Positions 7,149 through 16,855 of a DNA stretch of 16,855 nucleotides are shown here, piece after piece; positions within the stretch are counted from its first letter, which is position 1; each line of letters opens with the position of its first letter. A model generated the notes under the pieces. That model was not told where the DNA came from. It saw only the letters and a program-made list of their open reading frames with translations, and searched no databases. Where the stretch lies: NCBI GenBank assembly GCA_964597345.1, contig CAZQXK010000077.1, positions 668-17,522 on the forward strand, given 5' to 3'. This DNA comes from an uncultured Thermodesulfobacteriota bacterium (GTDB lineage Bacteria; Desulfobacterota; Desulfarculia; JACQYL01). A program made the translations under genes and the position numbers.

Positions 7149-8531
7149 TCATTTCACCTTGAGTTCGTCTATCTCGTATTTCTTGAGTTTACGCCAGAGG
7201 CTGGTCCGGGGAATGCCCAAGATCTTGGCGGCGCGAACCTTGTTGTAATTAGTGGCCTCCAGCACCCTGATGATATGCGCTTTTTCCTGCTCCGCCATAC
7301 TGCTCAGGGTATCCTGCGAAATGGAGTCCACCTCCAGTAATCTCAGGTCATCGGGCAGATCGTCCGCTCCAATATGCTTCTTTTCACCCATGGCGACGGC
7401 GCTGCAGATCATGTGGTCCAACTCTCGAACATTGCCCGGAAAGGGATAGCGCATCAGGATGTCCATGGCCTGCCGGGTAAAACCTTCGAAGGCTTTATGA
7501 TACAACTGATTGTAAAAGCGCAGGAAATGCTCGGCCAACAGAGGGATGTCCTGTCTGCGTTCGCGCAACGGCGGGGTGCGGATCACCACCACCTTGAGTC
7601 GAAAAAACAGGTCCTCACGGAAGCGGCCGGCGCGCACCTCATGTTCCAGGTCTTTGTTGGTGGCTGAGATTAGCCGGATATCCAGGGGTACCGGCTTGTT
7701 CCCGCCCACGCGCAGCAGTTTTCTTTCCTGGAGCACGCGAAGTAACTTGACCTGTGTGGCGAGGGCCATTTCGCCGATTTCATCCAGGAAAACCGTGCCG
7801 CCTTGAGCCACCTCCAGCAGCCCGGGCTTGAAGCCGTCGGCGCCGGTAAAGGCCCCTTTCTCGTGTCCGAACAGCTCGTTGGCGATGAGATCTTCCGCAA
7901 AGCCGCCGCAGTTGAATCCTACGAACGGGCTGTTTTTCCGGGGGCTTCCATTATGAATGGCCCGGGCCACCAGTTCCTTGCCTGTACCGCTCTCACCGTG
8001 AATCAGCACGTTGCAATCGATTTTCGCCACCTTATTGATGGCTTTGATCAGTTCCCGAATGTGGGGACTGATGCCCAGAATTTCCCGGGTGTGATCCTTT
8101 TTGAGCAGTTCCTGTTTAAGCTGCTTGTTTTCGGTGAGCAGGGCGATTTTCTCCGCGACCCGTTGCAGGGTGGACAGGATCTTTTCGGGGGTAAGCGGCT
8201 TTTCGATATAATCAAAGGCCCCGAGTTTGATGGCGTTAACCGCATCGTCTATCGCCGCGTAGCCGGTGAACAAAATGACCTCGGTTTCGGGAAAGCGCGA
8301 CTTGATGCGTTCCAGCAGCTCCATACCGGTCAATTGAGGCATGCGGATGTCGCTCATCACGATGTTGAAAGCGCCCGCGGCCATACGCTGGAGCACCTGA
8401 GCGGGATTTTCGAACAGTTCCACGCGGTATCCATGGCGATTCAGGATTCGGCCGATTTGCCGGAGTGCGACGGATTCGTCGTCGACGACGGCTACCTTCA
8501 AGGCGGTGGCGGGCGCCGGGATGGATTTCAC
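7149..8531 (-). CDS. Sigma-54-dependent response regulator / enhancer-binding protein (NtrC family: REC + AAA+ sigma54-activation + Fis-type HTH)
   Basis: A receiver N-terminus (VAVVDDE, D pocket, KP) is followed by GESGTGKELVARAIH (Walker A), the GAFTGA motif, the conserved ...RELDHMICSAVAM segment and a C-terminal HTH (NYNKVRAAKILGIPRTSLWRKLKKY). The GTG start overlaps the upstream kinase stop (GTGA) and has a GGGGGA RBS. Confidence 0.9.
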   Translation of the reverse strand: MKSIPAPATALKVAVVDDESVALRQIGRILNRHGYRVELFENPAQVLQRMAAGAFNIVMSDIRMPQLTGMELLERIKSRFPETEVILFTGYAAIDDAVNAIKLGAFDYIEKPLTPEKILSTLQRVAEKIALLTENKQLKQELLKKDHTREILGISPHIRELIKAINKVAKIDCNVLIHGESGTGKELVARAIHNGSPRKNSPFVGFNCGGFAEDLIANELFGHEKGAFTGADGFKPGLLEVAQGGTVFLDEIGEMALATQVKLLRVLQERKLLRVGGNKPVPLDIRLISATNKDLEHEVRAGRFREDLFFRLKVVVIRTPPLRERRQDIPLLAEHFLRFYNQLYHKAFEGFTRQAMDILMRYPFPGNVRELDHMICSAVAMGEKKHIGADDLPDDLRLLEVDSISQDTLSSMAEQEKAHIIRVLEATNYNKVRAAKILGIPRTSLWRKLKKYEIDELKVK

Positions 8532-13151: not shown

Positions 13152-13615
13152 AGCGGGTCATGTTCCTTTGCTTTGGGTTTGACGGCCAAGATGCGACAAT
13201 GGGTCAACTGAAGCAGCAGCTTTGCATCCTGAAGAGTCTTTGCATGGGCGGTGTCGTCAGAGTCATCGGAAACCCCGAGGATAATCTGGTCGATGTGGTA
13301 TTCCCGGACAAACTGCCGGACTTCTTGAATAAAATCACCACTCCGGCAGTCCGTGTGAATGTGCAGTCCGGCCGTCGTCCCTGCTTGGGCAATCTGGGAT
13401 TCGACGATTTGCCGGATGGTTGCCTGCAACGACGGATTCTCCGTTTCCGCCTGTTCGCTGAAATCGGCGGATTCAGCGGCAGGAGCAACCGTCGGATCTT
13501 GCACAAAAAGGAAGAAGAAACTGCCTCCGTTACGCTTGCCGAATTCCAGGGCGAAGCGAACGGCCGCCAAAGCGGTTCTCGTCAATTCTTTGATGGGTAT
13601 CAGAAAACCCGCCAC
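13133..13615 (-). CDS. Universal stress protein (UspA) family protein
   Basis: The Usp-like fold signature is FLIPIKELTRTALAAVRFALEFG...GDFIQEVRQFVREYHIDQIILGVSDD. The ORF-track start at 13633 is a TTG with no RBS. The GTG at 13615 is preceded by AGGAGA (AGGAGATAATGTG). No ATG is present in the frame. Confidence 0.65.
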   Translation of the reverse strand: MAGFLIPIKELTRTALAAVRFALEFGKRNGGSFFFLFVQDPTVAPAAESADFSEQAETENPSLQATIRQIVESQIAQAGTTAGLHIHTDCRSGDFIQEVRQFVREYHIDQIILGVSDDSDDTAHAKTLQDAKLLLQLTHCRILAVKPKAKEHDPLWNLSS

Positions 13616-13678
13616 ATTATCTCCTGAATGCAATCACTGAACGTACTTACCGGTCACGTCCATCGACGGAAATTGCAG

Positions 13679-13698
13679 CTTACAAGAAGCGTTCCATT
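13679..13698 (-). promoter_or_regulatory. Weak sigma54-like -24/-12 candidate (TGGAACG-N4-TTGTA) ~75 bp upstream of usp
   Basis: The minus-strand reading AATGGAACGCTTCTTGTAAG has the GG and the spacing of TGGCACG-N4-TTGCW, but GT replaces the conserved GC at -12. A sigma54 activator is encoded in the same gene string. Confidence 0.2.
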
Positions 13699-13703
13699 CA
13701 TTA

Positions 13704-13806
13704 TTTTTCCTTAGCCGTTGAAAAACGCGATCTGCTGTCACGCCAACGGCGTGACGCTTGCGCCTTCGTCATTGCGGCGTACTGGTTGTACGCCTCATTC
13801 CTCAGG
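13704..13806. repeat. Copy 1 of a duplicated intergenic element (core GCCGTTGAAAAACGCGATCTGC...TTGCGGCGTAC-TGGTT-GTACGCCTCATTCCTCAGGATTCGCGCGC), upstream of usp and downstream of the orphan receiver
   Basis: Near-identical to 14470..14560 over both ends. Copy 1 carries an extra perfectly palindromic insertion, GTCACGCC-AACG-GCGTGAC. Weaker similarity continues ~60 bp further, to about 13860. Confidence 0.7.
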
Positions 13807-14004
13807 ATTCGCGCGCTTTGTATGTCGTTTTGCATCGGCCTGCCCGCAATACGGCGTATCAACGGCTGTTGGATGGGGGGTCTTAGCGGCGGGCGGGAAT
13901 GCGGCGGATGGAGTGATGTTTCAATATGATACTGAACGTTCTCGGAGCGTCATTGTTTCGTTTCGGAAGGAAACGGAAGGGGCGCGCCATGGGGAACGGC
14001 TTTC

Positions 14005-14433
14005 TCATTTGAGATGTTTCGAAGGTCTCGAACGGGAGTCTTTGGGCTCAGGGTGTTCCGTTTTGAAACGCCTTTGCTCGAGCGCGTCATGCATACAGAC
14101 CATCAGGGTGTCCAAGTGGATCGGTTTCAGCAAAAAGTGCACGGCCCCGAGCTGAATTCCTTCCAGGCCGGTGTTCACGGAAGTGGCGCCGGTGAGGATG
14201 ATGACCTCCGTCAGCGGTTTGCGTTTCTTGATCTCTTTCAGCACCGAAATACCGTCTATGCCGGGCATGAGAACATCCAATAACACGATGTCGAAATCCA
14301 TTTGTTCCAGCAATTCAAGAGCCGCCAAGCCGTCCGCCGCCGTCGAAACCCGGTAGCCTCGCTTTTCCAGCAGTCGGGTCAGGTACTTGCGGACGTACTC
14401 TTCATCGTCGACGACCATGACTACGGGGTGCAT
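14005..14433 (-). CDS. Orphan single-domain response regulator (CheY-like receiver)
   Basis: MHPVVMVVDDEEYVRKYL...IVLLDVLMPGIDG...ILTG...LKP has a complete receiver signature. RBS AAGGAG lies 6 nt upstream of the ATG. Confidence 0.85.
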   Translation of the reverse strand: MHPVVMVVDDEEYVRKYLTRLLEKRGYRVSTAADGLAALELLEQMDFDIVLLDVLMPGIDGISVLKEIKKRKPLTEVIILTGATSVNTGLEGIQLGAVHFLLKPIHLDTLMVCMHDALEQRRFKTEHPEPKDSRSRPSKHLK

Positions 14434-14469
14434 AGGGACTCCTTGTCGTTGGGCGTTCTTTCATGGCAG

Positions 14470-14560
14470 GCCGTTGAAAAACGCGATCTGCGTCGTTGCG
14501 CTTCATCCTTCGTCCTTGCGGCGTACGGGTTGTACGCCTCATTCCTCAGGATTCGCGCGC
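14470..14560. repeat. Copy 2 of the duplicated intergenic element, 35-125 bp upstream of the orphan receiver start
   Basis: Shares GCCGTTGAAAAACGCGATCTGC and TTGCGGCGTAC-GGGTT-GTACGCCTCATTCCTCAGGATTCGCGCGC with copy 1. The 7-bp inverted repeat GGCGTAC/GTACGCC is preserved with a different loop base. Confidence 0.7.
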
Positions 14561-14782
14561 CTGGCATCTCATCGTTTTTCACCATCCTGCCCGGATAGCT
14601 GTTTCTCAACGGGCTGACAGCGGGCTGATGAAACACTCGATCCGCGGTCGGGCCAACGTCGTGGCTTGAACCACGTTGTCTTGTAGCAGCCGCCCGCAAT
14701 GCTGTCTGACCACGGGCGCCAAGGCCGGTCCCCAGGAGCACGGGAGCGCAGAGCCGAGTGGTGTCGGCCCATGGATGGAAGC

Positions 14783-14876
14783 AGTTTCATACTGAAACAG
14801 ACTTTTCCTCTTCTTACCCGATCTGTTTGAAACAATGCGTGGATATCGTCCCCGGGCTGTGTTTCATACTGAAACA
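14783..14876. promoter_or_regulatory. Array of three palindromic sites (TGTTTCA-TAC-TGAAACA, TGTTT-G-AAACA, TGTTTCA-TAC-TGAAACA) with centres ~39 bp apart. Candidate operator/UAS array.
   Basis: AGTTTCATACTGAAACA lies at 14783-14799, TGTTTGAAACA at 14825-14835 and TGTTTCATACTGAAACA at 14860-14876. The outer two are identical 16-mers and the middle is a deletion variant. They sit in a 790-bp ORF-poor region. Confidence 0.4.
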
Positions 14877-14916
14877 AGAAGTCTCAGCCCTTCTCCGTAT
14901 CGGGTGTTTCGCGGCC

Positions 14917-15245
14917 TATAATAGGTTGTTTGGGTCGCCGAAACAACGCACAATGAATCCTGCCTTCGGTCAAGCAAATATGATGCCGGAATCCGCAAGG
15001 GGGGAGAACTGGACCGAAGGATGGTGAATTTGGGCTCGTGGGCGTAAGTCCGCGGGGGGGACGGAGACGGCCAAAGGAACGGAGTTCGACGACGTAAACG
15101 GATACACTTGGCGGATAAAGAAGAGGGCCGAGAGCGGACCGTCGAAAAGCAGTGAGATGCAGAGCACCCGAATTCCTAATAATAAGGTGTAGATACGGTA
15201 TGTCGAATTGGGTCAAAAAGAGCGGCCACGCCGCAGGCGTGGCCT
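14917..15245 (+). ncRNA. Speculative small RNA: consensus -10 TATAAT at 14917-14922 downstream of the palindrome array, ending at the 15224-15245 hairpin
   Basis: There is no credible ORF in 14434-15267. A perfect TATAAT sits ~40 bp after the last palindrome. Paired segments include TTCGACG (15087-15093) with CGTCGAA (15146-15152), and GTTTCGCGGC...GGTCGCCGAAAC. The hairpin GGCCACGCC-GCAG-GCGTGGCC lies at the 3' end. Strand and ends are uncertain. Confidence 0.2.
15211..15245 (-). terminator. Rho-independent terminator of the small secreted protein gene (hairpin GGCCACGCC-NNNN-GGCGTGGCC followed on the minus strand by GCTCTTTTTG)
   Basis: A perfect 9-bp GC stem sits 24 nt past the TGA of the 15268..15636 gene. 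A T5 tract follows on the minus strand. Confidence 0.6.
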
Positions 15246-15926
15246 GGGTCACGTTCTTTGCCAGCTGTCAGGGGACTCTTTGTACTGTTGCTTTACATGT
15301 TGAGGGTTCTTCTGGAATATGATTTATCACAAATATTTTCTTACCCTTGATCATACCATAGGAGAACGTGCCATCGTCGCATGTTATAGAAATATTAGTT
15401 CCATCTATTACGCCTTGACATATTTGACCAGGATTCGGCTTAATATTTAAGGCTCTTATAAAGTACCCTCTTTGTTCGATTTCTACCATAAAATATTCAC
15501 CATCTTCAGGTGGGTCAGCAAAAGCATAGTGACTGCAATACATGGTACCTTCCCATGTACCGGTAAGATCGAATGCGGAAACACTTGCCGAAGTTAGGAA
15601 GATACAAAATACCAGTGAAAAGTACGCTCTTTTCATTGTGCCTACCTCCTTCTTTGGGTTCTTGTATACTGCACTCCGCAGTGGCGAAGTAGCTGAGACA
15701 AACCAATCAGGTTATGCACCTCACTTTTATTGTAGGCTGTCGAATGAAGAAGTACTTATACTGTTAGTAACTCAGCTGAAAGAATTCATGCAATAACCGC
15801 GGTGAGATATGGTGAAGGTGAGAAATCCGCATAATCCATACGGAATGCTGTATCATACTTGGGATATAGATAGAATAAAAATCAGATAACTATAACATCT
15901 CTAGTCTACTCCCGAGAACGAACTAA
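15226..15926. mobile_element. Low-GC (~40%) ~700-bp islet bounded by imperfect direct repeats GGTCAAAAAGAGC (15211-15223) and GGTCAAGAAAAAAGAGC (15927-15943). Candidate horizontally acquired single-gene cassette.
   Basis: There is an abrupt composition change at both ends. The islet carries one gene with its own strong SD and terminator. The 13/17-nt flanking direct repeats share GGTCAA and AAAAGAGC. No integrase or transposase is present. Confidence 0.35.
15268..15636 (-). CDS. Small secreted protein (122 aa; signal peptide, 4 Cys in the mature part), function unknown. It sits in a low-GC islet.
   Basis: A strong RBS (AAGGAGGT) lies 7 nt upstream of the ATG. The signal peptide is MKRAYFSLVFCIFLTSASVSA. 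Mature sequence: DLTGTWEGTMYCSHYAF...ICQG...ITCDD...STCKA. Codon usage and GC (~40%) differ sharply from neighbouring genes (~63%). Confidence 0.7.
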   Translation of the reverse strand: MKRAYFSLVFCIFLTSASVSAFDLTGTWEGTMYCSHYAFADPPEDGEYFMVEIEQRGYFIRALNIKPNPGQICQGVIDGTNISITCDDGTFSYGMIKGKKIFVINHIPEEPSTCKATVQRVP

Positions 15927-16125
15927 GGTCAAGAAAAAAGAGCAGAAGCGTTTTCAGGTCCCTTTTTCGGGCCAGTGAAGAGATGCGATGTGCGGGGTCG
16001 CGCTTTACTTTTCGTCACTGCGGCGCATCGTGTCTACGCCGCATTCCCCAGGAATTGGGCACGTTGCAGTTCATCGCTTTTTAGCAACCTGCCGGCTGCC
16101 CAGTTTTTCAACCACGGACCGCAAA

Positions 16126-16855
16126 TCATTTCCCGCCCGGTCCCCGGAAGTACTTGGACAGGAAAGCCAGGAGTTTATCTTTGGGCAGTTCGGTTTCCTC
16201 CAGGATCGGCGCCGCTTCTTCGAGAACCCGGGCGGCGTCGCCGTAGCCCAGATAGCGGGAAAGGACGTCGTCGTGGCGAATCCCCAACGACCTTCCCAGG
16301 AGCGACAGAATGGACACGATGCGGAAGGGAGCGTTGGGGCCTTCCGGGGCGAATACGGATTGGCATCCGGGACAATACAGGCCCATGTACTCGGCGCCGG
16401 ATTCCCGGACTTCCTGAAGCCGGACGCCGCGAAAGTCCGCCCCGGGTTTCCCCACGGCGGCCATGGCGGAGCCCCCGCAGCACAGCGCGTTTTCCCGGGA
16501 GTGGCTCAACTCGACGATCTGGATGCCGGGGACCGCTTGGAGCAGCGTGCGGGGGGAATCGGACTCGGGGTGTTCTCCCCGGACCAGATGACACGCGTCA
16601 TGCAGGGCCACGGTGGCCCGCACTTCCGAAAAGGGTCCCAGTTCGTCCACACGATCCGCCAGATACCGGGTGACAAAGCTCCAGGACCAGGAGGTTTCCG
16701 GCTCGTGCATATCAAAAAACGCGTTGCAGGTGGGGCACAGGAACACCACGTGTTCCGGCTGGAAGGCGTTCAGTCCCGTGACCAGGGGCTGGAAATGAGG
16801 CGCGACGCCCTTCGGATTTCCGGCCCGGGGGTTCGTGTCTCCGCAACAAGAAGCC
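16126..16855 (-). CDS. CCG-domain (Cys-rich) Fe-S oxidoreductase subunit, HdrD/HdrB/GlpC/LutA-like. It is 5'-truncated by the window edge.
   Basis: The reading frame stays open to position 16855 (…ASCCGDTNPRAGNPKG…FLCPTCNAFF…). A second CCG motif is present (CHLVRGEHPES…ALCCGGSAMAAVGKP…YCPGCQSVF). Two CX(n)CCGX(m)CXXC modules are diagnostic of this family. The stop lies at 16126. Confidence 0.75.
   Translation of the reverse strand, partial: ASCCGDTNPRAGNPKGVAPHFQPLVTGLNAFQPEHVVFLCPTCNAFFDMHEPETSWSWSFVTRYLADRVDELGPFSEVRATVALHDACHLVRGEHPESDSPRTLLQAVPGIQIVELSHSRENALCCGGSAMAAVGKPGADFRGVRLQEVRESGAEYMGLYCPGCQSVFAPEGPNAPFRIVSILSLLGRSLGIRHDDVLSRYLGYGDAARVLEEAAPILEETELPKDKLLAFLSKYFRGPGGK

Follow-up and report, generated by a model that had tools for sequence, protein, structure and literature searches.

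Correia elements, which are MITEs of Neisseria, measure ~104-157 bp, carry arms of ~25-26 bp and insert at TA-containing targets (PMC3184786, PMC10969869; in part general background), and Chunjie, a MITE found in Geobacter uraniireducens Rf4, is an A+T-rich element of 178-235 bp that has inverted repeats of 21 bp and direct repeats of 9 bp (PMC3184786). The ERIC/IRU sequences of Enterobacteriaceae measure ~127 bp. The repeat described here comes from a stretch of 16,855 nt (the window, meaning the whole stretch of DNA that was analysed), and it is like the Correia elements in its size, arm length, TA-containing target, intergenic position near gene starts and long hairpins, as well as in its internal deletion variants and in the co-transcription that is often seen for Correia elements. 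However, we saw no sequence relationship between the two, their host phyla differ, and the target duplication is TA in Correia elements but 4 bp (NTAN) or 6 bp in the present element; the promoter, IHF-site and RNase III roles are ones shown for Correia elements. With ERIC/IRU the present element shares a long imperfect palindrome, a place in intergenic transcribed regions, conservation across genera and size classes that arise through insertions at fixed internal sites (here a 12-nt hairpin module and nested hairpins), though sequence and taxa are unrelated and the present element has clear duplications and two arm subfamilies. Chunjie is found in a related phylum (Desulfobacterota, broadly taken) and is likewise intergenic, with many full-length and partial copies, and it can sit inside operons. 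That the two are the same element was ruled out, by description only, on the 150-bp length, the G+C-rich core and the 4-/6-bp duplications of the present one.

Insertion sequences of the IS5 family offer a further point of comparison. The IS5 target is YTAR, and the 4-bp TA-centred duplication of the present element recalls the IS5 group. Its arm GGCTGTTGAAAAACG is loosely like the IS903B end GGCTTTGTTGAATAAATCG, a weak match of 10/18 positions ungapped and ~13/17 with a 2-nt gap, whereas the duplications made by IS903 are 9 bp, unlike those seen here. Parentage in the IS5 family (IS5 and IS903 groups) is thus loosely suggested by sequence, as a lead and with no claim of membership.

A preliminary description of the window had drawn attention to two intergenic copies of an element with a conserved GGCGTAC-N5-GTACGCC palindrome, upstream of an orphan receiver gene and of a usp-led unit, and had offered as candidate roles a shared cis-regulatory module, a REP/MITE-like small repeat, or an sRNA or terminator module. 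We conclude that the duplicated elements are very probably copies of a ~150-bp non-coding MITE, an ordinary genomic passenger and no switch for these units.

The repeat and its copies in the window

The genes near the repeats all lie on the minus strand. Read along that strand, a CCG-domain gene (16749-16126) is followed by copy 3 of the element and then by an AT-rich island that bears a strong terminator and a 122-aa ORF; after the island come two GTTTCATACTGAAACA palindromes, copies 2b and 2, the receiver gene (14433-14005, with its ATG at 14433), copy 1 and usp. Downstream of usp lie genes for a CitMHS/SLC13 transporter, a cytidylate-kinase-like protein, a second receiver and a histidine kinase, and the operon ends with the gene for an NtrC-type sigma-54 activator with an HTH_8 domain (7149-8531, minus strand).

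Both copies with GGCGTAC-N5-GTACGCC are present where the preliminary description had placed them, though their size had been underestimated: in place of a unit of ~100 bp, alignment gave one of ~150-155 bp, which runs on rightward beyond the core, where the left arm recurs twice in inverted form. Good copies lie on the plus strand at 13714..13868 (copy 1) and 14467..14616 (copy 2). Copy 2 is a full-length member of subfamily B1, 150 bp long and 92% identical to the B1 consensus. Copy 1, between the receiver stop codon and the usp promoter region, is an extra-hairpin variant of the same subfamily with 78% identity to the consensus; 60 nt of its core match the consensus at 100%, the remainder of its frame has decayed, and its left terminus, which reads TTAG instead of CAGG, is truncated or diverged. 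These two real copies are joined in the window by two more that the preliminary description had missed. The 17-base core pattern TACGCCNCATTCCNCAGGA matches the window three times against 0.04 matches expected, and the third match revealed copy 3 (15968..16119, plus strand), which is old and diverged (68% identity to the B1 consensus) and starts 6 nt past the stop codon of the CCG-domain gene. The other, copy 2b (14618..14719, plus strand; repeat families D2 and D3), is a degenerate copy with its core deleted that begins one base from copy 2 and has modest support, its local alignment with copy 1 scoring 42 against a maximum of 36 for shuffles compared with copy 2. All of the window copies, three with a core and one remnant, are intergenic and surround the receiver and usp units. 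Clean NTAN duplications are seen at none of the four, where copy 1 is truncated at its left end, copy 2 nearly abuts 2b and copy 3 is old.

The element is laid out as a left arm (CAGGCYGTTGAAAAACGCGATCTGC), a core and an inverted copy of the arm, R1, after which a variable spacer (~12 nt) leads to R2, another inverted arm copy, which closes the unit. The core, of ~80 nt, contains the GGCGTAC-loop-GTACGCC hairpin followed by TCATTCCTCAGGA, and its fuller sequence is CATCCTTCGTCAYT-GCGGCGTAC-loop-GTACGCC-TCATTCCTCAGGA-TTYGCGCGCC. Copies 1 and 2 are identical at 22/22 positions of GCCGTTGAAAAACGCGATCTGC (13714-13735 and 14470-14491), and across the 45-nt core TTGCGGCGTAC-N-GGTTGTACGCCTCATTCCTCAGGATTCGCGCGC they differ solely at one base in the loop of the palindrome, which reads GGCGTAC-TGGTT-GTACGCC in copy 1 (13776..13794) and GGCGTAC-GGGTT-GTACGCC in copy 2 (14520..14538). 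The earlier observation of preserved arms around a T or G loop base is therefore correct, and it is the look of two near-consensus copies in one repeat family, GGCGTAC-N5-GTACGCC being the consensus central hairpin throughout that family. Likewise, the 19-nt palindrome reported for copy 1 exists, as a hairpin of 8-bp arms and a 3-nt loop (GTCACGCC-AAC-GGCGTGAC, 13737..13755), but it is not a private insertion of that copy, as had been supposed; it is a common variant module that recurs in many sister copies (L005, L045, L113, L148, L176 and others). The distances to the gene starts also proved to be about as claimed: the left arm of copy 2 ends ~35-36 bp upstream of the receiver ATG, and copy 1 lies 80-98 bp from the usp start (13633 or 13615). 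Given the ~35 nt between copy 2 and the ATG, the receiver mRNA probably reads through the element.

A dispersed family and its insertion sites

A degenerate form of the core pattern gave at least 110 matches in at least 103 genome loci, where ~1 would be expected by chance from the information content of the pattern. Among the matches listed, the hosts are mostly Desulfobacterota MAGs (Syntrophales, Syntrophobacterales, Desulfobacterales and Desulfobulbales), others being Nitrospirota and Rokubacteria, and the one cultured carrier is Desulfosarcina cetonica JCM 12296. Two further matches, in an archaeon (L030) and in a member of the Verrucomicrobiia (L069), lie in coding sequence with dissimilar flanks and were treated as chance. 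Several genomes hold multiple copies, with up to six separate loci on single contigs of 266-330 kb. For the 20-mer of the window-type left arm there were at least 120 loci in metagenomes, chiefly a few from sediment, and the 254-kb contig of the window itself is among them; about a dozen of these metagenome matches are a conserved membrane-protein coding motif and no MITEs. From these loci we obtained 107 distinct copies of full length; their modal length is 150 bp, and pairs of them share 84% identity on average. More than 100 copies of the element are present in the lineage of the window. The preliminary description had itself held that tens of copies without regard to gene context would mark a generic repeat, and this is the distribution that the genome-wide check returned, in support of the small-repeat option among its candidate roles.

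The copies fall into two main arm types, subfamily A with arm GAYGGCTTCGTAAAAAGTCC and subfamily B, to which the window copies belong, with arm CAGGCYGTTGAAAAACGC. ORFs that overlap the window copies had no Pfam match, and a conserved reading frame is ruled out by the varying length of the loop. No prior description emerged from Rfam, from plasmid BLAST or from a full-text literature search with the core sequence, and in the plasmid BLAST neither window copy 2 nor the subfamily-A consensus found a match. The MITE family that the element represents thus appears to be undescribed; uncultured sulfate-reducing and syntrophic bacteria carry it in abundance, and it is now defined by a consensus, by its boundaries and by insertion-site rules. 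Such a definition is of use for repeat masking in metagenome assembly and binning, for reducing spurious calls of ORFs and of "conserved motifs", and as a source of strain-level markers. Across phyla, conservation is higher in the core than in the arms, whereas MITEs usually show the opposite.

Evidence for mobility comes from the termini and their flanks. The left arm pairs with R1 over ~25 bp (1821 complementary against 472 non-complementary positions in 70 distinct copies), and R2 is the actual right terminus. In subfamily B1 the target-site duplication is 4 bp and both flanks read NTAN: the two 4-bp flanks are identical in 31/107 listed copies compared to 3.8% of mismatched pairs, and the outer flank bases, which target preference does not set, agree in 71% and 58% of cases compared to 29% and 26%. 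A duplication of 5 bp was seen in none of the 107 listed B1 copies. Subfamily A has an AT-rich duplication of 6 bp, perfect in 19/43 copies against 0.5% expected. The same arms also enclose different interiors, or no core at all, and are still accompanied by duplications (L077, L029, L049, L095, L171, L208/L220). The element adjoins unrelated genes in no fixed orientation, and all four arrangements of flanking genes were found by a crude ORF caller, in 29, 16, 15 and 11 copies.

The insertion-site signature is an observed one; for the mechanism, we propose that a DDE transposase encoded elsewhere would act in trans, recognizing the arms and inserting the element at NTAN sites with duplication of 4 bp. 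An autonomous partner of the element would be expected as an ORF of 0.9-2 kb bounded by inverted CAGGCYGTTGAAAAACG and by NTAN duplications. Among arm pairs 0.7-3.5 kb apart in ~1.8 Mb of loci, none flanked a transposase, and the ORFs between them encode a histidine kinase, an MBL-fold hydrolase, a RarA-like ATPase and similar ordinary products. An element of the IS200/IS605 or bridge-RNA type was considered and rejected on the inverted arms and the variable target duplications.

Orthologous loci and rival explanations

Orthologous loci were taken as the contigs that carry homologs of the transporter. Two of them, L105 and L106, are close relatives: their coding DNA is 94-97% identical to that of the window, with 4-10% of third codon positions differing, and in both loci copies 1 and 2 sit where they do in the window. 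Copy 2 differs at ~6% of positions in these loci, and the L105 version has GGCTTAC as the left arm of its stem, with no compensating change. Copy 1 of L105 departs from that of the window by ~24% in its core, where neither the central palindrome nor the 19-nt hairpin survives, yet its outer part is nearly unchanged. Among 86 sister copies, 55 stem pairs of the central hairpin have changed and none of the changes is compensated. Single copies thus decay after insertion, as the state of copy 1 in L105 and the uncompensated stem changes show. In the window itself, the core of copy 1 was probably gene-converted by another copy, an event that would also explain its striking identity to copy 2; the near-identity of the two also reflects shared descent from the family consensus, with no local selection. 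The more distant loci L107-L110, with 85% protein identity in the transporter, keep the order receiver, usp, transporter, kinase and activator, and lack the element; their receiver-usp spacer measures 221 and 296 nt compared to 372 nt in the window, and is thus ~75-150 nt shorter. Filled and empty orthologous sites can therefore be set side by side, L107-L110 being without any copy, as judged by absence of the element and by spacer length because the intergenic DNA has diverged to the point where exact junctions are unalignable, and copy 3 being missing in L105. There, ~200 nt of other sequence take the place of copy 3 and the AT-rich island. These ~200 nt resemble a decayed copy of the element in the opposite orientation.

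The idea of a shared cis-regulatory module, in which the palindrome would bind a transcription factor such as the NtrC-type activator and co-regulate receiver and usp, has some appeal, since two neighbouring units each have a copy upstream, in the same orientation, a sigma-54 activator with an HTH_8 domain is encoded in the operon, and the core is highly conserved across the family. However, the orthologous operons that lack the element keep both the gene order and the other upstream motifs, the motif conserved among orthologs being a different one (GTTTCA-N3-TGAAAC), the palindrome of copy 1 is lost in L105, and hundreds of copies stand beside unrelated genes in any orientation; we consider such a module very unlikely, and the selection on the palindrome that the preliminary description had suspected finds no support in the 55 changed stem pairs or in L105. 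A structured RNA, that is, a riboswitch, leader, sRNA or terminator made from one strand with functional hairpins, appears equally improbable. The copies do fold more stably than shuffled sequence (z of -1.5 to -4.0), the minus-strand folds of subfamily A are on average 5 kcal/mol more stable, and copy 2, at ~35 nt from the ATG, would lie in the 5' UTR of the receiver unless it supplies the promoter. Yet stable folding on both strands is expected of any long inverted repeat, and the 5 kcal/mol advantage is drawn from related sequences and is not decisive. Rfam returned no match for the whole window at gathering thresholds or for 13500-16300 at E<=10, apart from one spurious lncRNA, and no terminator or promoter was called in the copies, which leaves the sRNA or terminator option of the preliminary description without backing. 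Orientation relative to genes is not fixed, G:U counts are equal between the strands (60 versus 61), and mismatches in the arms show no preference for G:T (72, against 88 A:C) and thus no sign of strand-specific RNA constraint; the lack of compensation in the central hairpin points the same way.

Two other explanations accept a dispersed repeat and differ over what it is. REP/BIME units are palindromes of 20-40 nt without terminal inverted repeats or target duplications, are associated with RAYTs (REP-associated tyrosine transposases) and are usually species-specific. Spread by a RAYT in place of cut-and-paste transposition would fit the intergenic position, the palindromic form, the GC-rich core and the many copies per genome, but a 150-bp unit, terminal inverted arms of ~25 bp and variable duplications of fixed length are all foreign to REPs, the element has no conserved head of the GTAG type, and the family spans several phyla, which makes this the least probable of the explanations weighed here. 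Better placed, though still unlikely, is an exapted or cargo-carrying MITE whose ~80-nt core would be a selected protein-binding DNA or RNA motif borne on MITE arms. The core hardly varies among Desulfobacterota, Nitrospirota and Rokubacteria, in contrast to the arms and the length of the duplication (4 versus 6 bp), which have diverged, and among sister copies it diverges by ~5-8% compared to ~28-30% for loop and spacer. Moreover, copies that have no core or a different interior still duplicate their target (L077, L220, L171, L095), so that the core seems dispensable for movement and a requirement of transposition cannot explain its conservation. Against this, copy 1 of L105 and copy 3 of the window have decayed, stem changes go uncompensated, no tool indicates a function, and the search pattern required parts of the core and so biases its apparent conservation. 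Source (master) copies or gene conversion, either of which could yield low divergence in the core, may account for the cross-phylum conservation of a core that is apparently dispensable for movement.

Candidate control motifs beside the insertions

Reading the repeats as MITE copies removes a false lead, in that the palindrome does not serve the receiver and usp units as a dedicated operator, and shifts attention to GTTTCA-N3-TGAAAC palindromes and a sigma-54-like promoter that are common to orthologs with and without the MITE. The predicted promoter, TGGAACGCTTCTTGTA (13681..13696, minus strand), stands upstream of usp and outside the MITE, with 18 bp between it and copy 1's left arm. In the window, as in L105, L107 and L109, TGGAACG-N4-TTG recurs 66-111 nt upstream of usp. 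Palindromes of the GTTTCA-N3-TGAAAC type lie upstream of both receiver and usp in the same four loci, the element-free L107 and L109 included. In the window the two perfect GTTTCATACTGAAACA palindromes (14784-14799 and 14861-14876; repeat family D4) are candidate activator sites upstream of the receiver, and two degenerate GTTTCA-N3-TGAAAC-like motifs (13918-13932 and 13960-13974) lie upstream of usp, with copy 1 between them and the promoter. Because the operon ends with a sigma-54 activator, we regard the GTTTCA-N3-TGAAAC palindromes as likely activator sites and TGGAACG-N4-TTG as the likely promoter.

Within the copies themselves, a promoter and terminator scan gave nothing convincing, and inspection of both strands by eye found no GG-N10-GC at the spacing of a sigma-54 promoter inside the element. 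The sequence TGGTCAGACAGCATTGC (14692-14715) was considered as a sigma-54 promoter and rejected, as it is 2 nt too long; it is the right end of copy 2b.

The MITEs sit between the GTTTCA-N3-TGAAAC palindromes and the sigma-54-like promoter or the gene starts. At most, their putative effect would be to lengthen the distance from activator to promoter or to join the 5' UTR. On the usp side, palindrome and promoter stand ~155 nt further apart in the window and L105 than in L107 and L109, a difference that equals the length of the MITE, and on the receiver side the palindromes are displaced by ~220-300 nt, approximately what copies 2 and 2b measure together.

Apparently modular architecture of the element family

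The arms of the MITE, an approximately 150-bp non-coding dispersed repeat, were also found to enclose unrelated interiors at five of the fetched loci (L208 at ~5534 on the minus strand, L220 8711-8900, L077 2827-2950, L029 3150-3320 and L049 from 6390), and target duplications were present at these elements too, so the arm chassis appears to be modular. One alternative interior is a hairpin module, CCCTCTCCC...GGGAGAGGG...GGGTGAGGGTG, and another is the module GTCATTCCGCC...GGAATCCAG. Imperfect 10-nt direct repeats (TCCTTCGTCA / TCATTCCTCA) border the central hairpin of the usual core in the family consensus, and exactly the segment between them is missing in some copies (L183 1294-1420, L205), suggesting that this segment was deleted by recombination or, alternatively, that the central hairpin was itself once a nested insertion. 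Several genomes carry copies with extra nested hairpins of ~25-70 nt at two recurring positions within the element, after CATCC (L013, L018, L037, L067, L073, L086) and after CAGGA (L034, L056, L073, L101), and these additions give rise to size classes, as is known for ERIC elements. A Desulfobulbaceae MAG (L071 5530-5810) carries two units resembling subfamily A, the other main arm type, in head-to-tail order with 122 nt between them, which shows that short tandem arrays of the element can form. In L114, L121, L150, L201, L211, L215, L217 and L223, by contrast, the 20-mer GGCTGTTGAAAAACGCGATC falls within a conserved stretch of membrane-protein coding sequence (…CCACAGGCTGTTGAAAAACGCGATCAGGAA…); these were rejected as MITEs and represent chance coding matches.

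Divergence of the window from its close relative

In copy 1, between the receiver gene and usp, the core (13760-13826) agrees perfectly with the consensus although the surrounding frame is decayed, whereas in its ortholog in the close relative L105 (L105 3730-3800) the core is decayed. The two cores differ ~2-6 times as much as third codon positions, a pattern that suggests gene conversion between MITE copies. An AT-rich island, a strong terminator (15224-15244, minus strand) and the diverged copy 3 lie within ~14997-16123, a stretch replaced in L105 by ~200 nt of unrelated sequence, and thus a strain-level structural variant. The island includes a 122-aa ORF (15268-15636, minus strand) with a signal-peptide-like N-terminus and no Pfam match.

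Probable control elements near the receiver and usp genes

Upstream of the receiver and usp units, GTTTCA-N3-TGAAAC palindromes (13918-13932, 13960-13974, 14784-14799 and 14861-14876) and a sigma-54-like promoter, TGGAACG-N4-TTG (13681-13696, minus strand), are kept in MITE-carrying and MITE-free orthologs alike, the MITE-free comparison covering the upstream regions of the orthologous loci L107 and L109. The palindromes and promoter are probably the genuine control elements for the NtrC-type activator, whose gene lies at 7149-8531. The -12 element of this promoter departs from the canonical TTGC, with TTGT/TTGA in its place.
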